The notes under the pieces are model-generated. The model was not told the origin of the DNA, ran no database searches, and worked only from the letters and a program-made list of their open reading frames with translations. From positions 19,023 through 83,022 of the forward strand of contig CAZQVN010000012.1 of NCBI GenBank assembly GCA_964596775.1: a stretch of DNA of 64,000 nt. The letters run 5' to 3'. Shown in pieces: positions 20,091-26,161 of the stretch (positions are counted from its first letter, which is position 1; every line of letters starts with the position of its first letter). Source of the DNA: an uncultured bacterium. Lineage in GTDB: Bacteria > Eisenbacteria > RBG-16-71-46 > JABDJR01 > JAWXBZ01. The translations under genes were made by a program, and so were the position numbers.

Positions 20091-21620
20091 TCACTTGATG
20101 TAGGGAACGGCTTCGAGCTGGCGTTTTTCCTCGGGTGACAGGGTCCGCTCCGGCCGGTCGGTCAGGATCGTCGTGCCGTCGGAGTAGCAGGGCGGCCGCT
20201 TCTTCAGCGTTTCCGCGCCGAACACCGCGGTCAGCACCCGGCCGTCCATGTCCTGCGGCACGCACTCGCCCATCGTGTAGAGGATCGTCGGGGCCACGTC
20301 GACGAGCGAGGCGCCCGCCAGTTCGCCGCGATTGATCCCCGGGCCCTTGATGATGAAGATCCCGTTCGGGCGGTGGTAGCCCGAATAGGACGTGGAATGG
20401 AGGTCGGTGACCGTGTCCAGGTCCTTCGCGGGGTCGCCGGGTCCGATGTAGCACTCGGGCGCCTCGATCATCACGAGGTCGGGGGCCTTTTCGACCATCC
20501 GCCCGGAGTAGAGTTCCTCACGGCGCACGACCCGCTCGACCGGTTTCTTTCCCGTCAGCGGATCGACGATGGCGGTGGCCTGCTCCACGAACATGGAGCG
20601 GAACGTGTCGTACTCGGGCGACATCGGCCAGGTCGTTCCGAGCCGGTAACGGAAGATCCCGTTCGTGATGAAGACGTCCGGCACCTTGTGATTGCGCACG
20701 TAGTCGTTGAGCGACGACCGTCCGAACCAGTTCAATGCGTTCACCTCGCGGTAGATCGGCCCGAAACCGTGGTCGGAAATGACGATCACCACGGCGTCCT
20801 CGGGCAGCAGGGCGAGGATTTCGCCGAGGCGCTTGTCCATCCCCTTCCAGAACTCGTGAATCGCCTCGCCGAAGTCCTTTCCGAGCTGCTCCGTGTAGTA
20901 GGGATGCTGCGGATCCATCATCCCCCAGAAGAAGTGCTGGATGCGGTCGGTGGCGGTGAACACGGTCCAGGTGAAATCGTCGTTCCGCGTGCGCAGCCAG
21001 TCGCCGGTCACGCGGGCCACGTCGTCCCGCGACTTGACGATCGTGGCCAGCATCGCCGCCTCGGCGTCCCGGATGAGCGCCTCCCCCATCCGGTCGAGCG
21101 CGTAGTCCCCGAGGGAGGCCTGCAACTCCTTCGGATACGTGTAGGACAGGTTCGGGGCGTCGGGAAAGGGAAACCCGGACACCATGACCCCGTTCACCGG
21201 GTCGGGGGGCCACGTCATCGGAACATTGAGAATGCCGACGGTCCGCCCCGCGTCGGACAGGAGTTTCCAGACCGGAACCGCGCGGCGGCTTTCCGACGTG
21301 TACAGGAGCGACTTTCCCGGCTGGTCGGGATCGGGGCGCTCGAAGTCGAAGATGCCGTGCTTGCCGGGATTCACGCCGGTGGCCGCCGAGGTCCACGCCA
21401 CCGGGGAGAGGATCGGGTGCACGGAGTGGAGTTCGCCGTAGACGCCGCCGTCCATCAGGCTCTTCAGGTTCGGCAGCTCCCCCGCCGCGAGCCAGGGATC
21501 GAGGAGATCGAACGTGGCTCCGTCCAGCCCGATCACGAACACCTTCGGGCCCGTCGGCTTCCGGCCGCAGGAGAGCGCGGACAGCGCGAGGACGAGGGCC
21601 AGGGCGATGAAGGAGCGCAT
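20091..21620 (-). CDS. Alkaline phosphatase family protein (type I phosphodiesterase/nucleotide pyrophosphatase fold), lipoprotein
   Basis: VFVIGLDGATFDLLDPWLAAGELPNLKSLMDGG...SPVAWTSAATGVNPGKHGIFDF is typical of the AlkP/NPP superfamily. Lipobox LALSALSCG. ATG at 21620 (MRSFIALAL); an alternative GTG at 21662 exists. Confidence 0.75.
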   Translation of the reverse strand: MRSFIALALVLALSALSCGRKPTGPKVFVIGLDGATFDLLDPWLAAGELPNLKSLMDGGVYGELHSVHPILSPVAWTSAATGVNPGKHGIFDFERPDPDQPGKSLLYTSESRRAVPVWKLLSDAGRTVGILNVPMTWPPDPVNGVMVSGFPFPDAPNLSYTYPKELQASLGDYALDRMGEALIRDAEAAMLATIVKSRDDVARVTGDWLRTRNDDFTWTVFTATDRIQHFFWGMMDPQHPYYTEQLGKDFGEAIHEFWKGMDKRLGEILALLPEDAVVIVISDHGFGPIYREVNALNWFGRSSLNDYVRNHKVPDVFITNGIFRYRLGTTWPMSPEYDTFRSMFVEQATAIVDPLTGKKPVERVVRREELYSGRMVEKAPDLVMIEAPECYIGPGDPAKDLDTVTDLHSTSYSGYHRPNGIFIIKGPGINRGELAGASLVDVAPTILYTMGECVPQDMDGRVLTAVFGAETLKKRPPCYSDGTTILTDRPERTLSPEEKRQLEAVPYIK

Positions 21621-21674
21621 CAGCGGGACGCGGGCGCCGGGGGCGGATTTCGATACGGGCACGTGTGTCACTCC

Positions 21675-23210
21675 TCAGTGCATGTAGGGCAGGCTGCCGA
21701 CCTTCTGGTCCAGGGTGTCGGCGGCGGAATTGTCCTTCACGTCCTTCCGCTCCGAACGCACCGGGTTCTTCCTGACGTAGTCGGGCTGGAACAGCGCGGT
21801 CAGCACCCGGCCGTCGCAGTAGTTCGGAACGGGCTGTCCGAGCAGGTACAGGATCGTCGGGGTAATGTCCAGCAGCGTGGCGCCCGAGTCAAGGCGGCCG
21901 CGCACGAACGGTCCGCCGGTGGCGATCAGGATTCCTTCCATCTCGTGATGGCCGGAAAACGTGTAGGACGGCGTGCCCCACGGTTCGCGATAACCGCGGT
22001 CGTTGGAAATGTACACCTCCGGCGACGGGGTCATCACGATGTCCGGCCCCTTGTCCGCATAGCGGCCGATGTAGGCCTCCTCGCGGCGGTACGTGGCACG
22101 GGCCGGACCGAGCCCCGTCTCGGGGTCCCGCGTGCGCTTCAGCCGGTCGAGGACGTCGTTGCGGACCGCTTCGTAGTCGCTCTTCGAAACGACGCCATTC
22201 GGCTCGCGCCCTTCCACGTTCAGGTACAGCAGGGAACCGTTCGTTTCGAACGAATACGTGCAGCTCAGCGGCGGTTCGCCGGCGCCCGGGTTCCGCAGGA
22301 ACGACTGCATCCGGAACTCGCGGTGCACGCCTCCGAACCCGTGATCGGAGAGGACGACGATCGGCAGGTCCGCCCCCTTCCGGCGCCGGGCCGTTTCGAG
22401 GATCGTGCCGAGGTGCCCGTCCAGTTCCACCCACAGATCGTGGATGGCGGTGCCGTAGCGGGACGCCTTCTCCTCGTCGTACTTCGGCCACTGCGGGTCC
22501 ATGTACTGCCAGAAGAAGTGCTGGATCCGGTCCGTGGAGGTGAACACGACCCAGGCCATGTCCCACTCCTCGGTGTCCAGCAGCCGGTTCACGTTTTCCG
22601 CGCGGCTCCGCATCGTGGCCATGATGTCCTCGAGCAGGCGGTCCTCGGTGCCGTCCTCGATCGACAGGTCCATCCTGTCGATCCGGTAGCCGGTCAGTTG
22701 CGCCTCGAGTTCGGGCGGGTAGGTGTAACCGGTGATGCCGGTGTGGGGCATCCCGGAGATCATGAACCCGTTCACCGCATCGGGCGGGTCCGAAGCCGGC
22801 ACGTTGATCACGCCGACCTTGATCTTCGCGTCGGAGAGCAGCTGCCAGATGGCCGGAACACGCCGGCTCCGCGAGGTTTCGTTGACGAACGTCATCTCGT
22901 TGGGGAGGCGTTTCAGGAAGTCGAAGATGCCGTGCTTGCCCGGATTGACGCCGGTGACCGCCGAGGTCCAGGCCGGCGGCGAAAGAAAGGGGACGACGGA
23001 GGTCAGGTCGCCGGAGACGCCGGAATCCACCAGCGACTTGAGATGCGGCAGGTCCCCGGCCTCCATCCACGGGCGCAGGAGCTTCCAGGTGGCGCCGTCC
23101 AGGCCGATGACGAGGGCGCTACCGGCTCCGGGATGTTTCTTTCCGCAGGCGGGCGCGATGAGAACCAGGCCGAAGACGACCAGGGTTCGGATGAGGGACC
23201 CGATGGACAT
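21675..23210 (-). CDS. Alkaline phosphatase family protein paralog (NPP-type), lipoprotein
   Basis: ATG at 23210. MSIGSLIRTLVVFGLVLIAPACG lipobox. LVIGLDGATWKLLRPWMEAGDLPHLKSL...SPPAWTSAVTGVNPGKHGIFDF is colinear with the neighbouring paralog. Confidence 0.8.
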   Translation of the reverse strand: MSIGSLIRTLVVFGLVLIAPACGKKHPGAGSALVIGLDGATWKLLRPWMEAGDLPHLKSLVDSGVSGDLTSVVPFLSPPAWTSAVTGVNPGKHGIFDFLKRLPNEMTFVNETSRSRRVPAIWQLLSDAKIKVGVINVPASDPPDAVNGFMISGMPHTGITGYTYPPELEAQLTGYRIDRMDLSIEDGTEDRLLEDIMATMRSRAENVNRLLDTEEWDMAWVVFTSTDRIQHFFWQYMDPQWPKYDEEKASRYGTAIHDLWVELDGHLGTILETARRRKGADLPIVVLSDHGFGGVHREFRMQSFLRNPGAGEPPLSCTYSFETNGSLLYLNVEGREPNGVVSKSDYEAVRNDVLDRLKRTRDPETGLGPARATYRREEAYIGRYADKGPDIVMTPSPEVYISNDRGYREPWGTPSYTFSGHHEMEGILIATGGPFVRGRLDSGATLLDITPTILYLLGQPVPNYCDGRVLTALFQPDYVRKNPVRSERKDVKDNSAADTLDQKVGSLPYMH

Positions 23211-23265
23211 CCGCGGAGGCCGCCGCCCCTGGGGACGGGCGCGCCGTGGCGCCTCTTCGGGTCGC

Positions 23266-23985
23266 CTAATTGCCGTTCGGATTCGACTTCACTCCGCTCC
23301 AGGTCGTTTCCTGCACGGGACGGGCCTGGCCGCAGGGGTTGTACCCGTCTTCGGATGCTCCCTCGGAAAACGTGACGAACCCGAGATGGGGGCGCGGGAA
23401 TATCGGGGCTCCCGCACCGGCCACGAGCGTCTCGCGGGCGGCGCAATCGGCCACCTTGGCCGCGTTGTCCACCGGCCGGGGAATGACCTCGAATTTGTCC
23501 GCGGTGTAGGCGGTGATGTAGAAATAGCCGGCCACCCCGGTGACTCCCGTACCGACCCCTCCGGGCTCCGAACGCTGGCAGTTGTTTTCCGCGTCCCAGG
23601 TGATCTGGTTGCTTCCGCCGGGATTGGGCCAGCCGCCGAAGGGAAACTGGAGGGCCCCGCAGAGGGACCACTCGATGACGTCCACCCCGAGCCTCCGGGC
23701 ACCGTTGTAATCGATGCCGCACTGGAGACCGGCCAGCCCGATCGACGGGTTCGCGTCCGTGACCACGAGATAGGCGTAGTAGGGCTCGTTCAGCTTCCCC
23801 TTCGTGACCATGTCCTGGCAGGCCGGCCTGGCCTTGTTGCTCGAGCACTTGTTCCCGCCGACCGATCCGACCGGCACGATGTGTATCATGATCTTGGCGT
23901 ATTCGTTCTCGTCGGCCCGGACCGGTCCGGCCGCCAGGACGACGGCGAGGGCGGTCAGCGCCAGAAACTGCGCGGGATGCTTCAA
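23266..23985 (-). CDS. Secreted Cys-rich hypothetical protein (family A, copy 1)
   Basis: TTG start at 23985 is preceded by GGAG 6 nt upstream. Signal peptide MKHPAQFLALTALAVVLAAGPVRA. About 8 Cys are conserved with the paralog at 24175..24846 (AKIMIHI.../AKIAIHI..., ...GVAGYFY..., ...YNPCG...). No recognisable domain. Confidence 0.55.
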   Translation of the reverse strand: MKHPAQFLALTALAVVLAAGPVRADENEYAKIMIHIVPVGSVGGNKCSSNKARPACQDMVTKGKLNEPYYAYLVVTDANPSIGLAGLQCGIDYNGARRLGVDVIEWSLCGALQFPFGGWPNPGGSNQITWDAENNCQRSEPGGVGTGVTGVAGYFYITAYTADKFEVIPRPVDNAAKVADCAARETLVAGAGAPIFPRPHLGFVTFSEGASEDGYNPCGQARPVQETTWSGVKSNPNGN

Positions 23986-24039
23986 GACGGACTCCGTGAG
24001 GTCAGAGGGAACTCGACCGGGACCAGACCCCGGCACGGG

Positions 24040-24080
24040 CGGATACAATTATAGAGGATCGATGGACCGTTGTCGTCACC
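24040..24080 (-). promoter_or_regulatory. Candidate sigma70 promoter for the 23985 gene (perfect -10 TATAAT)
   Basis: Minus strand reads ...GTGACGAcaacggtccatcgatcctcTATAATtgtatcc.... TATAAT is at 24053..24048, about 55 nt upstream of the TTG start, with a GTGACG -35-like hexamer 19 nt further upstream. Confidence 0.35.
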
Positions 24081-24119
24081 CGCGAGGACCGAACCGGGTT
24101 CCCGCGCGGAGGCGGGAAC

Positions 24120-24165
24120 TAAAAAAAAAAGGGTGGCGCCGAAGCACCACCCTTTTCTTTACGCT
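24120..24165. terminator. Bidirectional rho-independent terminator (GC hairpin flanked by A10 and T-rich tract)
   Basis: Plus strand AAAAAAAAAA-GGGTGGCGCcgaaGCACCACCC-TTTTCTTT. The 9-bp stem has one mismatch and a 4-nt loop. On the minus strand the hairpin is followed by T10, directly downstream of the 24175 stop. Confidence 0.65.
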
Positions 24166-24174
24166 CAGGAAAGC

Positions 24175-24846
24175 TTAGTTCGAGTACGAACCCTTGATGT
24201 TCGACCAGGTCGTATTCTGAACCGGGGTCACGAGACCGCAGGGATTGTAGCCCGAGCCGGCGCCCGTTCCCCAGCACGCGCGGCCGTAGTGCGACGGCGT
24301 GCCGGTGATGATGTCTTCCACCGCGTTGCAGTTGGCCACCTTGCCGGCGTTGTCGACCGGACGGGGTCCGGCGCTCAGGCAATCGGGCGTGTAGGCACCG
24401 TTGTAGAAGTATCCGGCCACGGCCACGACGCCGGTACCGGCTCCGCCGGGCTCGGTGACCTGGCAGCCGTTCCAGGTGATCAGGTTACCGGAGCCGTTCT
24501 GTCCCCAGGCCGGGCCGGGGGAGATGAACTCCAGGGTGGCGCAGAGCGTCCACGCGAACTGTGCCAGACCGTTGCCCTTGGCAAGACCAAGCTGGCAGCC
24601 GGACACGCCTTCGGCGGCGCTGCCGTCCGTGACGAGCACATAGGTGTAGTAGGTGTTGGGCGGATAGAGTCCGCCCTGGGTGACGATGGCGTTACACGCC
24701 TTGAGGCCGGCGCCACAGGCGTTCTTCGTGGTCTTGGGGCCGATGTGGATCGCGATCTTGGCGTTGGCGTTACCGGCTGCGAACGACTCCGAAGAGAACG
24801 CGAGCAGCGCGACGCCGGCGAGCAGTGCGGTGGCAAAACGCTTCAT
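24175..24846 (-). CDS. Secreted Cys-rich hypothetical protein (family A, copy 2)
   Basis: ATG 24846 is preceded by AAGGAGG 8 nt upstream. Signal peptide MKRFATALLAGVALLAFSSESFA. Paralog of 23266..23985 with the same Cys spacing. Followed by a strong terminator. Confidence 0.6.
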   Translation of the reverse strand: MKRFATALLAGVALLAFSSESFAAGNANAKIAIHIGPKTTKNACGAGLKACNAIVTQGGLYPPNTYYTYVLVTDGSAAEGVSGCQLGLAKGNGLAQFAWTLCATLEFISPGPAWGQNGSGNLITWNGCQVTEPGGAGTGVVAVAGYFYNGAYTPDCLSAGPRPVDNAGKVANCNAVEDIITGTPSHYGRACWGTGAGSGYNPCGLVTPVQNTTWSNIKGSYSN

Positions 24847-24949
24847 GAGAGAGGGCCTCCTTTGCGATGTTGCAACTACTAGGGATGAGGTGTGCGGCCT
24901 CCTGGATCTGCCTGCTTCATTCGTCACCCTTGCGGGTGAACCGGAGGAG

Positions 24950-24975
24950 CCCCGCCCCCAGGCACGGGGCGGGGC
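24950..24975 (-). terminator. GC-rich hairpin (CCCCGCCCC-N7-GGGGCGGGG) downstream of the 24999 gene; possible terminator without U-tract
   Basis: Perfect 9-bp inverted repeat about 25 nt after the stop of the 24999..25676 gene. No T-run follows, so the call is weak. Confidence 0.3.
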
Positions 24976-24998
24976 CTCCGTATCACTATCGAACCAGA

Positions 24999-25676
24999 CT
25001 AGGGGCCGGCGTCGCCAGCGCAGGAAGCCGCGCCGGCAAGGAACGGCGTCAGGATGGTGGCATCAGACAGACCAACCGCGAGATCGCAGTTGATGTCGGT
25101 GCACCACTGATACACGCTCGTCGCCAGAGGCGTCGTGTGCTGAACGGCATCGGCAAGACCCGTGGCACAGGAACCAGCCGGGTTCCACACACCACCCGTG
25201 AAGGTGGTCGGGAGCTTTCCGGCCGAGTCCACCGCGTCCGGGGACACGGTGCCGTACTCCTGGAGCTTCACGCCATCGGCGAACACTTCGCCGGCGAACT
25301 TGAGCACGCCAGGGATTCCAGCCAGGTTGTACTGAATGCAACCGCCGGCGGTGATGTTGAACGTGGCAACACCGGAGCCGTTGGTAACACCACTGATGAC
25401 ACGGGGGCGGGGGCCAGGAACAGTATTGCACCAGCAGATCAGCGTGTCGCCGACCGTGGTGAACCGGAGATCAACCGCGGCCGCGGCGATAGGTCCGCCG
25501 GAGCCGACAACAGTCACCGAGTACCCGAGGGCACCGGTGGGGCTGATTCCGAGGCAATTCGGGACAGTGCTCAGCCCGGGAACAGGCACGTTGGCCATTG
25601 CGGGGGCGGCAAAAACCAACCCCATCACGGCCAGAGCACAACCCTTGCGCAACAAACTGCGCAGAAAACGGTCCAT
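24999..25676 (-). CDS. Secreted Cys-containing hypothetical protein (family B)
   Basis: ATG 25676 is preceded by GGAGG 7 nt upstream. Signal peptide MDRFLRSLLRKGCALAVMGLVFAAPAMA. Gly/Thr/Val-rich mature part with about 8 Cys. Unrelated to family A. Confidence 0.55.
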   Translation of the reverse strand: MDRFLRSLLRKGCALAVMGLVFAAPAMANVPVPGLSTVPNCLGISPTGALGYSVTVVGSGGPIAAAAVDLRFTTVGDTLICWCNTVPGPRPRVISGVTNGSGVATFNITAGGCIQYNLAGIPGVLKFAGEVFADGVKLQEYGTVSPDAVDSAGKLPTTFTGGVWNPAGSCATGLADAVQHTTPLATSVYQWCTDINCDLAVGLSDATILTPFLAGAASCAGDAGP

Positions 25677-26085
25677 CGTTACACCTCCTAAACGTTACCG
25701 AGAGCTAGGATGTCCGAGGTAAGTAGCAGCGTCGTATGCAACTCCCAGAATAAGGTGACAACACCCCCCTTCGCACACCCGGCACAGGCGTGGAAAAAAT
25801 GTCATACACTCACACGACAAGAGTTTAATGGAGAAATCGCCTGAGCGTCAAGAACAAAGACAGTTTACGAGCCTCGACCGGGGAGAGATGGCTCCCGGGA
25901 GACTCCCTGTGCGGGCCTCGTGACGAACGGTTGATTTCAAAGGTGCCTCGCGAAAGGTCACGGGTTCTGAAGAAGATTCAGATATACGGGACACCCTACG
26001 ACGGCGCGGGGAGGACGTCAATCCCGGTTCTGAGGCACCGGGATCGAATTCGGGGGGGGGCGCATCACGGGGCGTTTTCGGGGAC

Positions 26086-26161
26086 TGGTGGGCGAAACAG
26101 GGCTCGAACCTGTGACATCTTGCGTGTAAGGCAAGCGCTCTACCAACTGAGCTATTCGCCC
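26086..26161 (-). tRNA. tRNA-Val (anticodon TAC), CCA encoded
   Basis: Reverse complement GGGCGAATAGCTCAGTTGGTAGAGCGCTTGCCTTACACGCAAGATGTCACAGGTTCGAGCCCTGTTTCGCCCACCA. It folds into a canonical cloverleaf: acceptor GGGCGAA/TTCGCCC, D arm GCTC..GAGC, anticodon stem CTTGC/GCAAG with loop CTTACAC, T arm ACAGG-TTCGAGC-CCTGT. Confidence 0.85.

Follow-up and report, generated by a model that had tools for sequence, protein, structure and literature searches.

Are three small, cysteine-rich proteins encoded beside a tRNA gene the cargo of an acquired islet, or are they a resident part of the cell surface, and what might they do there? The question arises from a locus in a 64,000-nucleotide stretch of the genome of an uncultured bacterium (the window), which a preliminary description had read as a tRNA-linked accessory islet. 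Here, we propose that the locus is a vertically inherited cell-envelope and surface-protein cluster of Candidatus Eisenbacteria, an uncultured phylum often found in soils, sediments, and microbial mats, and is not acquired cargo. The genes concerned are:

20091..23210, minus strand: two paralogous Phosphodiest genes (PF01663, alkaline-phosphatase superfamily; Pfam E=5.8e-48 and 2e-35)
23266..23985, minus strand: gene A, an ORF of 239 aa; paralog of B, with the tail variant TTWSGVKSNPNGN
24175..24846, minus strand: gene B, an ORF of 223 aa; predicted signal peptide, AB domain (six-Cys core), and tail PVQNTTWSNIKGSYSN
24999..25676, minus strand: gene C, an ORF of 225 aa; predicted signal peptide, Ig-like β-sandwich, and C-terminal domain resembling dockerin
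26086..26161, minus strand: tRNA-Val(TAC) (ARAGORN; Rfam, 75 bits)

Three predicted secreted proteins

The preliminary description had listed three minus-strand genes with strong SDs, and all three are found where it placed them: gene A starts at a TTG (23985) with GGAG 6 nt upstream, gene B at an ATG with AAGGAGG 9 nt upstream, and gene C at an ATG with GGAGG 7 nt upstream (25684..25688). It had also reported cleavable signal peptides, in agreement with the Sec-like N-termini that we read in all three proteins (predicted cleavage between GPVRA and DENE in A, ESFA and AGNA in B, and APAMA and NVPV in C) and with the AF2 models of B and C, whose N-terminal helices are a rendering of these peptides. 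Export by Sec is predicted for each protein. The mature forms have 7 (A), 9 (B), and 8 (C) cysteines, close to the eight or so described, and probably carry disulfide bonds.

A and B are the clear paralogs they were said to be (44% identity, E=3e-48), and the third gene is indeed unrelated to them, both by BLASTP and by profile-profile comparison (probability 5%). No domain had been recognised in any of them, and searches of Pfam, NCBIfam, PADLOC, and PHROGs with A, B, and C likewise returned no family. Of the lectin, toxin, and surface-protein options then considered, that of a surface protein fits best and that of a toxin or bacteriocin is without any support.

A conserved cluster beside tRNA-Val

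The core order YceG-DUF3098-tRNA-Val-C-AB×2-4-Phosphodiest×2-TPR, where AB stands for genes of the A/B family, recurs in MAGs and metagenome contigs of divergent Candidatus Eisenbacteria. In one Eisenbacteria MAG (GCA_034440375.1, locus L001) the order is the same as in the window over RluD-STAS-HATPase-RuvX-YceG-DUF3098-tRNA-Val(TAC)-C-AB-AB-AB-Phosphodiest-Phosphodiest-TPR. The gene order, tRNA-Val included, is common to L001, L002, L003, and a JGI contig, and in both L001 and L003 the tRNA at this position is again tRNA-Val(TAC). A further locus (L011) shows the C-AB-AB-Phosphodiest×2 part, and another (L010, GCA_036383525.1) has the same genes with C between AB copies (AB-AB-AB-C-AB-Phosphodiest×2). 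Wherever a related locus covers this site, the cluster is present there. Its neighbours are envelope genes, namely MltG/YceG, Phosphodiest, and a TPR protein with a weak PMT_2 match. Between the window and L001, C is 59% identical and A and B are 48% identical to their positional orthologs, values like those of the flanking housekeeping neighbours (42-66%). Because A and B each have positional orthologs, their duplication predates these lineages.

The preliminary description had instead supposed a horizontally acquired islet beside tRNA-Val that carries accessory secreted proteins (toxin, bacteriocin, or lectin), a supposition that draws on the adjoining tRNA gene, the AT-richer spacer between, the tandem duplication, and the promoter-like and terminator signals of the genes' own. 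This reading fails because the region is conserved and syntenic in relatives, the outcome that the same description had named as one that would refute it, and we regard it as very improbable: the synteny, including the tRNA, is identical in distant relatives whose flanks are only 42-66% identical, and A, B, and C have diverged as much as their neighbours. No integrase, transposase, or other mobility gene lies near the cluster in the window or at the syntenic locus, and A, B, and C gave no PADLOC or PHROGs matches. The last 20 nt of tRNA-Val, sought with up to 3 mismatches, occur within the window only in the tRNA itself, so that the direct repeat suggested as an island border is missing there. 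GC3 is ordinary (A 0.85, B 0.85, and C 0.74, against 0.81-0.90 in neighbours), and the spacer holds a conserved promoter and leader (see below), not junk. Like tRNA-linked genomic islands, the cluster adjoins a tRNA gene across a spacer poorer in GC; unlike them, it has no integrase, direct repeat, or patchy distribution, and its arrangement is conserved in the lineage. Thus tRNA-Val is a conserved neighbour rather than an integration site.

Expression signals and the downstream genes

The following signals were read around the three genes:

26052..26060, plus strand: G9 homopolymer in the spacer, C9 on the coding strand (read from sequence)
25822..25851, minus strand: promoter-like site of gene C, TTGACG-18-TAAACT (consensus scan)
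25677..25815, minus strand: 5' leader of gene C, about 140 nt (conserved blocks in alignments)
24942..24980, minus strand: GC-rich hairpin 3' of gene C, without a U-tract (-43.8 kcal/mol, z=-2.8)
24121..24160, minus strand: intrinsic terminator between B and A (GC stem and T10, with an A-tract upstream)
24048..24076, minus strand: promoter-like site of gene A, ACGACA-17-TATAAT (consensus scan, 10/12 matches)

The spacer between tRNA-Val and gene C is 409 bp long and less GC-rich (56.7%) than the window as a whole (67.7%). The G9 run lies within it, much as described beforehand (an AT-richer spacer of about 400 bp with G9). The run is not conserved in the L001 spacer and is for that reason probably incidental. 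In alignments, the -35 and -10 hexamers of gene C are kept in L001 and in metagenome loci, and the leader that follows contains the conserved blocks GUGUGAGUGU, CCUGUGCnnGGUGnnnGAArGGGGGU, and ACAUCCUAGCUCUCGG, and then the SD GGAGG. All 7 matches to this leader pattern in metagenomes precede a C-family gene. The leader corresponds to no Rfam family and shows no covariation among 6 sequences. The hairpin 3' of gene C may be an attenuator or a stabiliser.

Between B and A, the terminator folds at -30.7 kcal/mol (z=-5.4), with none of 200 shuffles equally good, and its upstream A-tract means that it could work in both directions, as the preliminary description of a bidirectional terminator had it. 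The TATAAT promoter named there does precede gene A, as a consensus match only. After gene A, folding finds no terminator (z=0.26) and the next gene follows after 55 nt; A is probably co-transcribed with the two Phosphodiest genes, since they are adjacent with no terminator between. At each syntenic locus, the final AB gene is followed by the Phosphodiest pair, and in L011 the genes overlap. The gene A subfamily always adjoins Phosphodiest genes, and the AB copy beside them in L001, L010, and L011 shares the gene A tail type. The strong SDs, the conserved promoter and leader of C, and the strong terminator of B fit highly expressed structural proteins, and high expression of A, B, and C is predicted on the strength of these signals.

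The AB module and its resemblance to cohesins

Gene B has 118 homologs, all of which, where the source is named, come from Candidatus Eisenbacteria, apart from one partial sequence labelled only "bacterium". The wider AB domain family comprises 1496 representative clusters at 50% identity (E<=1e-3). Some copies of the domain stand alone and some are in tandem; others directly follow the signal peptide of large surface proteins. Those proteins combine 2-3 copies of AB with PKD, ASH/HYDIN, fn3, or Reprolysin and end in FlgD_ig or Por_Secre_tail (e.g. P0234, P0290, and P0271). Six cysteines are conserved, and several aromatic residues are near-invariant (W99, W114, W125, Y146, F147, Y148, and Y152).

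The AF2 model of B has a pLDDT of 90.5, with the C-terminal tail disordered. Its best Foldseek match in the PDB is a cohesin (2vo8; E=1.3e-5, TM 0.63 on target), and cohesins (types I, II, and III as well as non-cellulosomal kinds) make up about 20 of the best 50 matches, at moderate TM-scores of 0.55-0.65 on target; integrin domains, pilins, and Als adhesins are among the same matches. As modelled, the β-sandwich jelly-roll of B superposes on solved cohesins, so that AB looks like an unannotated β-sandwich module with a cohesin-like fold.

How far does the resemblance to cohesins (PF00963; PDB 2vo8 and 2jh2 from Clostridium perfringens, 2xdh from Archaeoglobus fulgidus, 4dh2, and 5nrm) extend? 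Cohesins, which the B model matches best in structure, share with AB an occurrence in multiple copies: as in scaffoldins, AB is found 2-3 times in large secreted proteins that also have Ig-like repeats and a surface-anchoring domain (FlgD_ig or Por_Secre_tail), and by analogy these proteins with T9SS-type domains resemble scaffoldin in architecture. In contrast, no sequence similarity between AB and the Cohesin profile can be detected: A and B have no Pfam match at E<=1, none of 94 family members matches Cohesin at E<=10, and a sequence search of the PDB with AB found no match. AB also differs from cohesins in being about 60 residues larger, in its six conserved cysteines, in its host (a Gram-negative, FCB-type uncultured phylum), in an anchor that is a T9SS-type C-terminal domain and not an SLH or sortase signal, and in the conserved C-terminal tail that AB proteins carry.

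Gene C and its resemblance to dockerins

Gene C has 92 homologs, none with a Pfam domain. Its AF2 model (pLDDT 94.1) consists of an Ig-like β-sandwich bearing a CWC motif and, at about residues 145-219, a Ca-loop/helix domain resembling dockerin, with helices at 174-186 and 203-214. The second domain is internally repeated (residues 158-189 against 187-219; hhalign probability 95.9%, E=6.4e-9). Its second loop follows the EF-hand pattern D-x-N-x-D-x6-D, with D194 in 84, N/D196 in 78, D198 in 81, and D205 in 84 of 85 family members. In the first loop, position 1 (D/N165) is kept in 70/85 and position 12 (D176) in 85/85, position 5 is mostly S, T, or N, and position 3 is A or G. From sequence and model, C would be a secreted protein in which an Ig-like domain precedes a dockerin-like domain built of two calcium-loop/helix (F-hand) repeats, and it is predicted to bind calcium.

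With type I dockerins (PF00404; PDB 2y3n_B and 5m2s_B), C shares the two duplicated loop-helix segments, the second loop followed by a hydrophobic helix, and the C-terminal position of the domain. Weak profile matches fall exactly on the motif: two of four weak matches in a PDB sequence search are dockerins (2y3n_B and 5m2s_B; E=0.6-1.3), and 2 of 85 C-family members have sub-threshold Dockerin_1 matches in Pfam at E=0.04. All such matches are below threshold, however; the Dockerin profile does not match gene C itself and is significant in no member, and the whole C model has no significant match among PDB and viral structures, no dockerin ranking well. C further departs from dockerins in its degenerate first loop, in repeats that lie about 29 residues apart, in four conserved cysteines inside the domain, and in the joining of the domain to a single Ig-like domain, not an enzyme. 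Searching with a profile of just the C-terminal domain, at limited sensitivity, gave nothing but C-family fragments and no enzyme fusions.

A C-terminal tail that alternates with the T9SS domain

A tail motif, TTW[S/G]x[I/V]K, is found in 216 of 253 AB proteins, its end lying 3-7 residues (mostly 4-6) before the C-terminus. In its fuller form, PVxxTTW[S/G]x[I/V]K, this tail is short, disordered, and present on stand-alone and tandem AB forms. The closest relatives of gene A bear TW[ST]GVK tails. N-terminal AB copies stop before the tail, which is independent of the AB fold and can stand about 500 residues away from it; P0324, P0326, and P0339 are examples of proteins whose tail is remote from any AB domain. 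Every tail-bearing protein examined also has an AB domain, an association that is biased because these proteins were gathered by an AB-domain search.

T9SS-type C-terminal domains are found in 18 larger AB-family proteins, and none of the 18 has the tail. These relatives, from the same phylum, resemble T9SS cargo (Por_Secre_tail PF18962 or FlgD_ig PF13860) in that C-terminal domain and in a similar modular build with Ig-like repeats; A, B, and C differ in having no sorting domain of about 80 residues, and the last 15 or so residues of A and B make up the tail. We read the tail as a candidate C-terminal recognition, sorting, or docking tag. A bolder proposal, which we consider rather unlikely, is that it is a previously undescribed Eisenbacteria surface signal that replaces the T9SS domain, either as a new sorting or attachment tag or as a peptide ligand of the cohesin-like AB module; as a ligand, it would let AB-tail proteins and C self-assemble into a disulfide-stabilised, cellulosome-like scaffold on a Gram-negative surface.

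A possible role at the cell surface

In light of these resemblances, what might the cluster do? Our tentative answer, to which we give slightly less than an even chance, is that the locus encodes vertically inherited building blocks of a non-cellulosomal, cohesin-dockerin-type surface assembly. A and B would be exported by Sec, each as a stand-alone, disulfide-stabilised β-sandwich AB module, and the AB modules would act as protein-binding receptors. Their ligands would be the dockerin-like domain of C, the C-terminal tails, or both, and together these parts would build the assembly on the cell surface. The two families do co-occur in one genome (GCA_942491735.1), which encodes a protein with three AB copies and a T9SS-type C-terminal domain as well as C genes in a tandem array of four.

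One alternative, unlikely in our judgement yet deserving serious attention, is that AB is a carbohydrate- or ligand-binding β-sandwich (CBM-, lectin-, or adhesin-like) that directs enzymes and surface proteins towards either a polymer or the envelope glycan of the cell itself, with C an unrelated Ca-binding, Ig-like structural protein and no binding between the two. The many near-invariant aromatic residues of the β-sandwich, its fusion to protease, PKD, fn3, and Ig repeats (as is often the case for CBMs), the adhesin and pilin domains among the Foldseek matches, the existence of AB paralogs without C, and the position of the cluster among envelope genes are all consistent with it. Yet the best 50 Foldseek matches, dominated by cohesins, hold no CBM or lectin structure, no Pfam CBM matches even at E<=10, and both the conserved tail and the dockerin-like features of the neighbouring C are left unexplained. 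Alternatively, AB could bind the TTW[S/G]xIK tails of other members, as a groove peptide or in a donor-strand-like manner, to give a head-to-tail surface layer or fibre anchored by the members with T9SS domains, with C as an accessory. A tail that is disordered in the monomer model, keeps a fixed distance from the C-terminus, is independent of an AB fold up to about 500 residues off, never accompanies a T9SS anchoring domain, and in every protein examined comes with AB would suit such an arrangement. We think it improbable, as the association of AB and tail is biased by the AB-based collection, and so short a motif at the C-terminus might just as well serve in sorting or processing.

Whatever the assembly, the locus defines two sizeable families absent from Pfam and NCBIfam (about 1,500 AB clusters at 50% identity and 92 C homologs), offers a testable structural reading of them as cohesin-like and dockerin-like modules, and points to a short C-terminal motif that alternates with a T9SS sorting domain. 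If the binding or sorting roles are true, assemblies of the cohesin-dockerin type, here very divergent and disulfide-bonded, would be known from a Gram-negative lineage of FCB type as well, and the tail would be a new tag for predicting the Eisenbacteria surface proteome. If these roles fail, the locus is still a clean case in which tRNA adjacency, tandem duplication, and private promoters alone do not mark an island.

Several observations run against the cohesin-dockerin reading. No member of either family has a significant Cohesin or Dockerin profile match, the TM-scores are moderate and generic β-sandwiches appear in the same Foldseek list, and the C-terminal domain of C, unlike classical dockerins, has no enzyme fusions. 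Nor are the AB and C families strictly linked across loci: AB paralogs also occur alone in unrelated contexts, and C arrays are also found with no AB gene nearby.

A vertically inherited secreted-protein cluster

We propose that A, B and C, three neighbouring genes for small secreted cysteine-rich proteins, are core genes and not an island, and we hold with high confidence that they form a vertically inherited secreted-protein cluster. The features of the locus are as follows.

20091..23210, minus strand: two paralogous Phosphodiest (PF01663) genes in tandem, which in every case come after the last AB gene (AB being the family of A and B)
23266..23985, minus strand: gene A, 239 aa, start TTG, GGAG upstream
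24175..24846, minus strand: gene B, 223 aa, start ATG, AAGGAGG upstream
24999..25676, minus strand: gene C, 225 aa, start ATG, GGAGG upstream
25677..25851, minus strand: promoter-like site of C (TTGACG-18-TAAACT) and leader of ~140 nt, kept across divergent Eisenbacteria
26086..26161: tRNA-Val(TAC), the sole tRNA in the window

What the preliminary description had observed in the sequence is confirmed. The three consecutive ORFs with their Shine-Dalgarno sequences are present, and the cleavable signal peptides and roughly eight cysteines attributed to each product are borne out by a basic n-region, a hydrophobic core and an A-x-A-like cleavage site (the putative signal stretches being modelled by AF2 as N-terminal helices) and by 7, 9 and 8 cysteines in mature A, B and C. 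A and B are paralogs (44% identity over 214 residues, E=3e-48), while C has no relationship to either by BLASTP. A stretch in common (PDAVDSAGKL / PRPVDNAGKV) raised the idea of C as a remote A/B relative, which is ruled out by profile-profile comparison (hhalign probability 5%). Scans of A, B and C against Pfam, NCBIfam, PADLOC and PHROGs gave no match, in keeping with the reported lack of a recognisable domain. The terminator between B and A was also found (strong and intrinsic, a hairpin followed by T10, z=-5.4), as was the AT-richer spacer between tRNA-Val and C (409 bp, 56.7% GC, in a window of ~68% GC) with its G9 run.

The same description read these genes as a tRNA-linked islet of accessory cargo, a reading that we abandon: gene order around tRNA-Val is the same in divergent relatives, an outcome that the description itself had named as refuting the islet, no integrase or transposase was found in the window neighbourhood or the syntenic locus, a search for a repeat of the tRNA 3' end as an island border found none, and GC3 of A, B and C is ordinary. 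In L001 (GCA_034440375.1, an Eisenbacteria MAG), the order is IleRS-DksA-LspA-RluD-STAS-HATPase_c_2-RuvX-YceG-DUF3098-tRNA-Val(TAC)-C-AB-AB-AB-Phosphodiest-Phosphodiest-TPR, and the window has the same gene order. The identities of A, B and C to their L001 counterparts are comparable to those of the flanking genes, so that the cluster and the housekeeping genes around it have diverged to a similar extent.

Table. Identity between the window and L001
RluD: 60%
STAS: 57%
HATPase_c_2 protein (RsbW-like): 65%
RuvX: 42%
YceG: 53%
C: 59%
B, to the first AB copy of L001: 48%
A, to the last AB copy of L001: 48%
Phosphodiest, both: 65-66%
TPR: 50%

The related locus L011 and a JGI contig have the same arrangement, with an AB copy number of 2-4, and L010 (GCA_036383525.1) has the order AB-AB-AB-C-AB-Phosphodiest-Phosphodiest. 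In every case the AB copy adjacent to the Phosphodiest genes is of the A subfamily (tail TW[ST]GVK), which makes the A/B duplication ancient.

Homologs of B (118) and of C (92) are all "hypothetical", with a Pfam domain in none. Those with a named source come from Candidatus Eisenbacteria MAGs, save for one partial protein labelled only "bacterium". A genome scan with a narrower C alignment returned only two loci, both from Eisenbacteria and neither with AB nearby. A/B and C define two unannotated, phylum-restricted families, for which there is a structural reading that is coherent and can be tested.

The AB domain

When 1.84 billion representative proteins were searched with an AB profile, 1496 clusters matched at E<=1e-3, of which 509 reached E<=1e-30; multidomain proteins are frequent among the best 150. 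In these, the AB domain lies directly after the signal peptide, often in 2-3 copies, and is joined to PKD_6, ASH/HYDIN-type Ig, fn3, DUF1573 or a Reprolysin-like metalloprotease, the C-terminus being a FlgD_ig or Por_Secre_tail (T9SS-type) domain. Six cysteines are conserved in the alignment (C44, C51, C102, C128, C173 and C203, numbered as in B), and many members contain six and no more.

The AF2 model of B, a confident one (pLDDT 90.5), is an all-beta sandwich with its last 20 residues disordered. When compared with the PDB by Foldseek, its top match is the cohesin 2vo8 (E=1.3e-5, TM 0.63 normalised to the cohesin), and cohesins of all types make up ~20 of the top 50 matches, interspersed with integrin, pilin and adhesin sandwiches. 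No sequence-profile link to Pfam Cohesin was found; against PDB sequences, the AB profile yielded nothing beyond spurious matches to BLIP-II repeats (E ~2), and a family-wide Pfam scan at E<=10 gave only noise. With cohesins first by fold and with these architectures, yet lacking a sequence-profile link, AB is cohesin-like in fold and usage and stands outside the cohesin sequence family. In our view AB is, with reasonable probability, a cohesin-like module that binds proteins.

Two AB genes have other surroundings. In L006 (10001..11925), the C-terminus encoded by the AB-family gene P0079 is aberrant and lacks the tail; transposase genes (HTH_23, DDE_3) come immediately after this gene, which points to its probable disruption by an IS element. 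In L021 (7001..9203), a lone AB paralog, P0100, lies beside DsbD-like and DsbA/thioredoxin-like genes, neighbours that may be compatible with a disulfide-rich exported protein or may be a coincidence.

Protein C

The AF2 model of C, likewise confident (pLDDT 94.1), begins with an Ig-like sandwich, a part with weak matches to Big_1, CarboxypepD_reg and macroglobulin-type domains. Its C-terminal part (~residues 145-219) has helices at 174-186 and 203-214, the second being preceded by the loop D194-I-N196-C-D198-x-A-V-G-L-x-D205. As in EF-hands and dockerins, this patterned loop is followed by a hydrophobic helix. The loop ligands are conserved (D194 in 84/85 members, N/D196 in 78/85, D198 in 81/85, D205 in 84/85), and distant members have DIDGDG or DINGDQ there. 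Residues 158-189 and 187-219 form an internal repeat (hhalign probability 95.9%, E=6.4e-9), and the segment before the first helix is a degenerate copy of the loop-helix unit.

Four weak matches were returned when the C profile was searched against PDB sequences; in two of them, with the dockerins 2y3n_B and 5m2s_B (E=0.6-1.3), the alignment falls on the loop motif. Pfam Dockerin_1 was touched by two of the 85 members (E=0.04), and a family-wide Pfam scan at E<=10 returned weak Ig or Dockerin_1 matches only. Against the motif, the repeat and these weak matches, a structural search with the C model gave no significant dockerin match and a search for enzymes bearing C's dockerin-like domain found none. 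Hence we use "dockerin-like" for a well-motivated resemblance, and not for membership.

In another Eisenbacteria lineage (L004, 8887..12707; L008, 8936..10621), C occurs in arrays, each with 1-4 tandem copies and located behind an unannotated ~300-aa gene. These arrays adjoin giant proteins with Peptidase_C25, FG-GAP and FlgD_ig, along with MgsA/UvrA-like genes, and the surrounding 10 kb hold no AB gene.

The C-terminal tail

The tail of both A and B is PVQ[N/E]TTWS[N/G][I/V]K, with 5-6 residues after it; an example of the tail peptide is TPVQNTTWSNIKGSYSN. The motif W[SGT]x[IVLM]K occurs near the C-terminus of 216 of the 253 AB-family proteins collected, mostly ending 4-6 residues from it, and in the ~200 kb of Eisenbacteria DNA examined it is confined to AB proteins. 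In multidomain proteins, the N-terminal AB copies end before the tail; in P0324, P0326 and P0339 it lies hundreds of residues downstream of the sole AB domain, and in P0256, P0319 and P0342 it follows an extra domain of ~90 residues. A T9SS-type C-terminal domain is present in 18 of the 253 proteins, none of which has the tail motif. Being separable from the AB domain and absent where there is a T9SS domain, the tail is an independent C-terminal element that alternates with that domain. WGxIK is a linker preceding T9SS C-terminal domains; it was absent from all 18 family members with such a domain, and the idea of a T9SS linker was dropped. The tail is a candidate sorting, attachment or docking tag, possibly a new one.

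A possible role in surface assembly

What might AB and C do together? The cohesin-like fold of AB and the duplicated F-hand of C are two independent signals, each modest by itself, in adjacent genes of a conserved cluster, and they suggest one and the same kind of system. AB relatives have architectures like those of scaffoldins, with a surface anchor, and GCA_942491735.1 encodes, besides four C genes in tandem, a 1281-aa protein with three AB domains that ends in a T9SS-type domain. Taken together, these favour a role in surface protein assembly, where the binding would be of the cohesin-dockerin type and the tail would be a further ligand or signal, or an alternative one. The main rival is that AB is a CBM/adhesin-like ligand-binding module. 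Counting against an AB-C system, AB paralogs occur alone in unrelated contexts and there are C arrays with no AB gene close by. That C or the tail is the ligand of AB is a tentative proposal, and a somewhat doubtful one.

Transcription and the leader of C

Both Phosphodiest products have a signal sequence ending at a cysteine, making them possible lipoproteins, and have similar short C-terminal motifs (…LPYMH and …VPYIK). Folding revealed nothing significant as a terminator after A, and the two Phosphodiest genes overlap in L011, which suggests that A-Phosphodiest-Phosphodiest is a co-transcribed operon. A 1000-aa plus-strand ORF (20373..23375), antisense to both Phosphodiest genes and the end of A, is most likely an artefact of high GC, the Pfam-supported genes being on the other strand.

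A GC-rich hairpin (z=-2.8) that lacks a U-tract lies after C. The G9 run (26052..26060), between the tRNA and the C promoter, is not conserved in L001 and so is probably incidental. The promoter-like site and leader are conserved where the relatives' proteins are only ~50-60% identical, and the spacer is more than junk. At the locus, Rfam returned only the tRNA and sub-threshold terminator look-alikes, with no family for the leader, and RNAalifold on six leader sequences gave no compensatory changes. A conserved AUCCUA block in the leader could pair with the Shine-Dalgarno sequence. The leader pattern matched seven metagenome contigs, all seven with a C-family gene 60-176 nt downstream.
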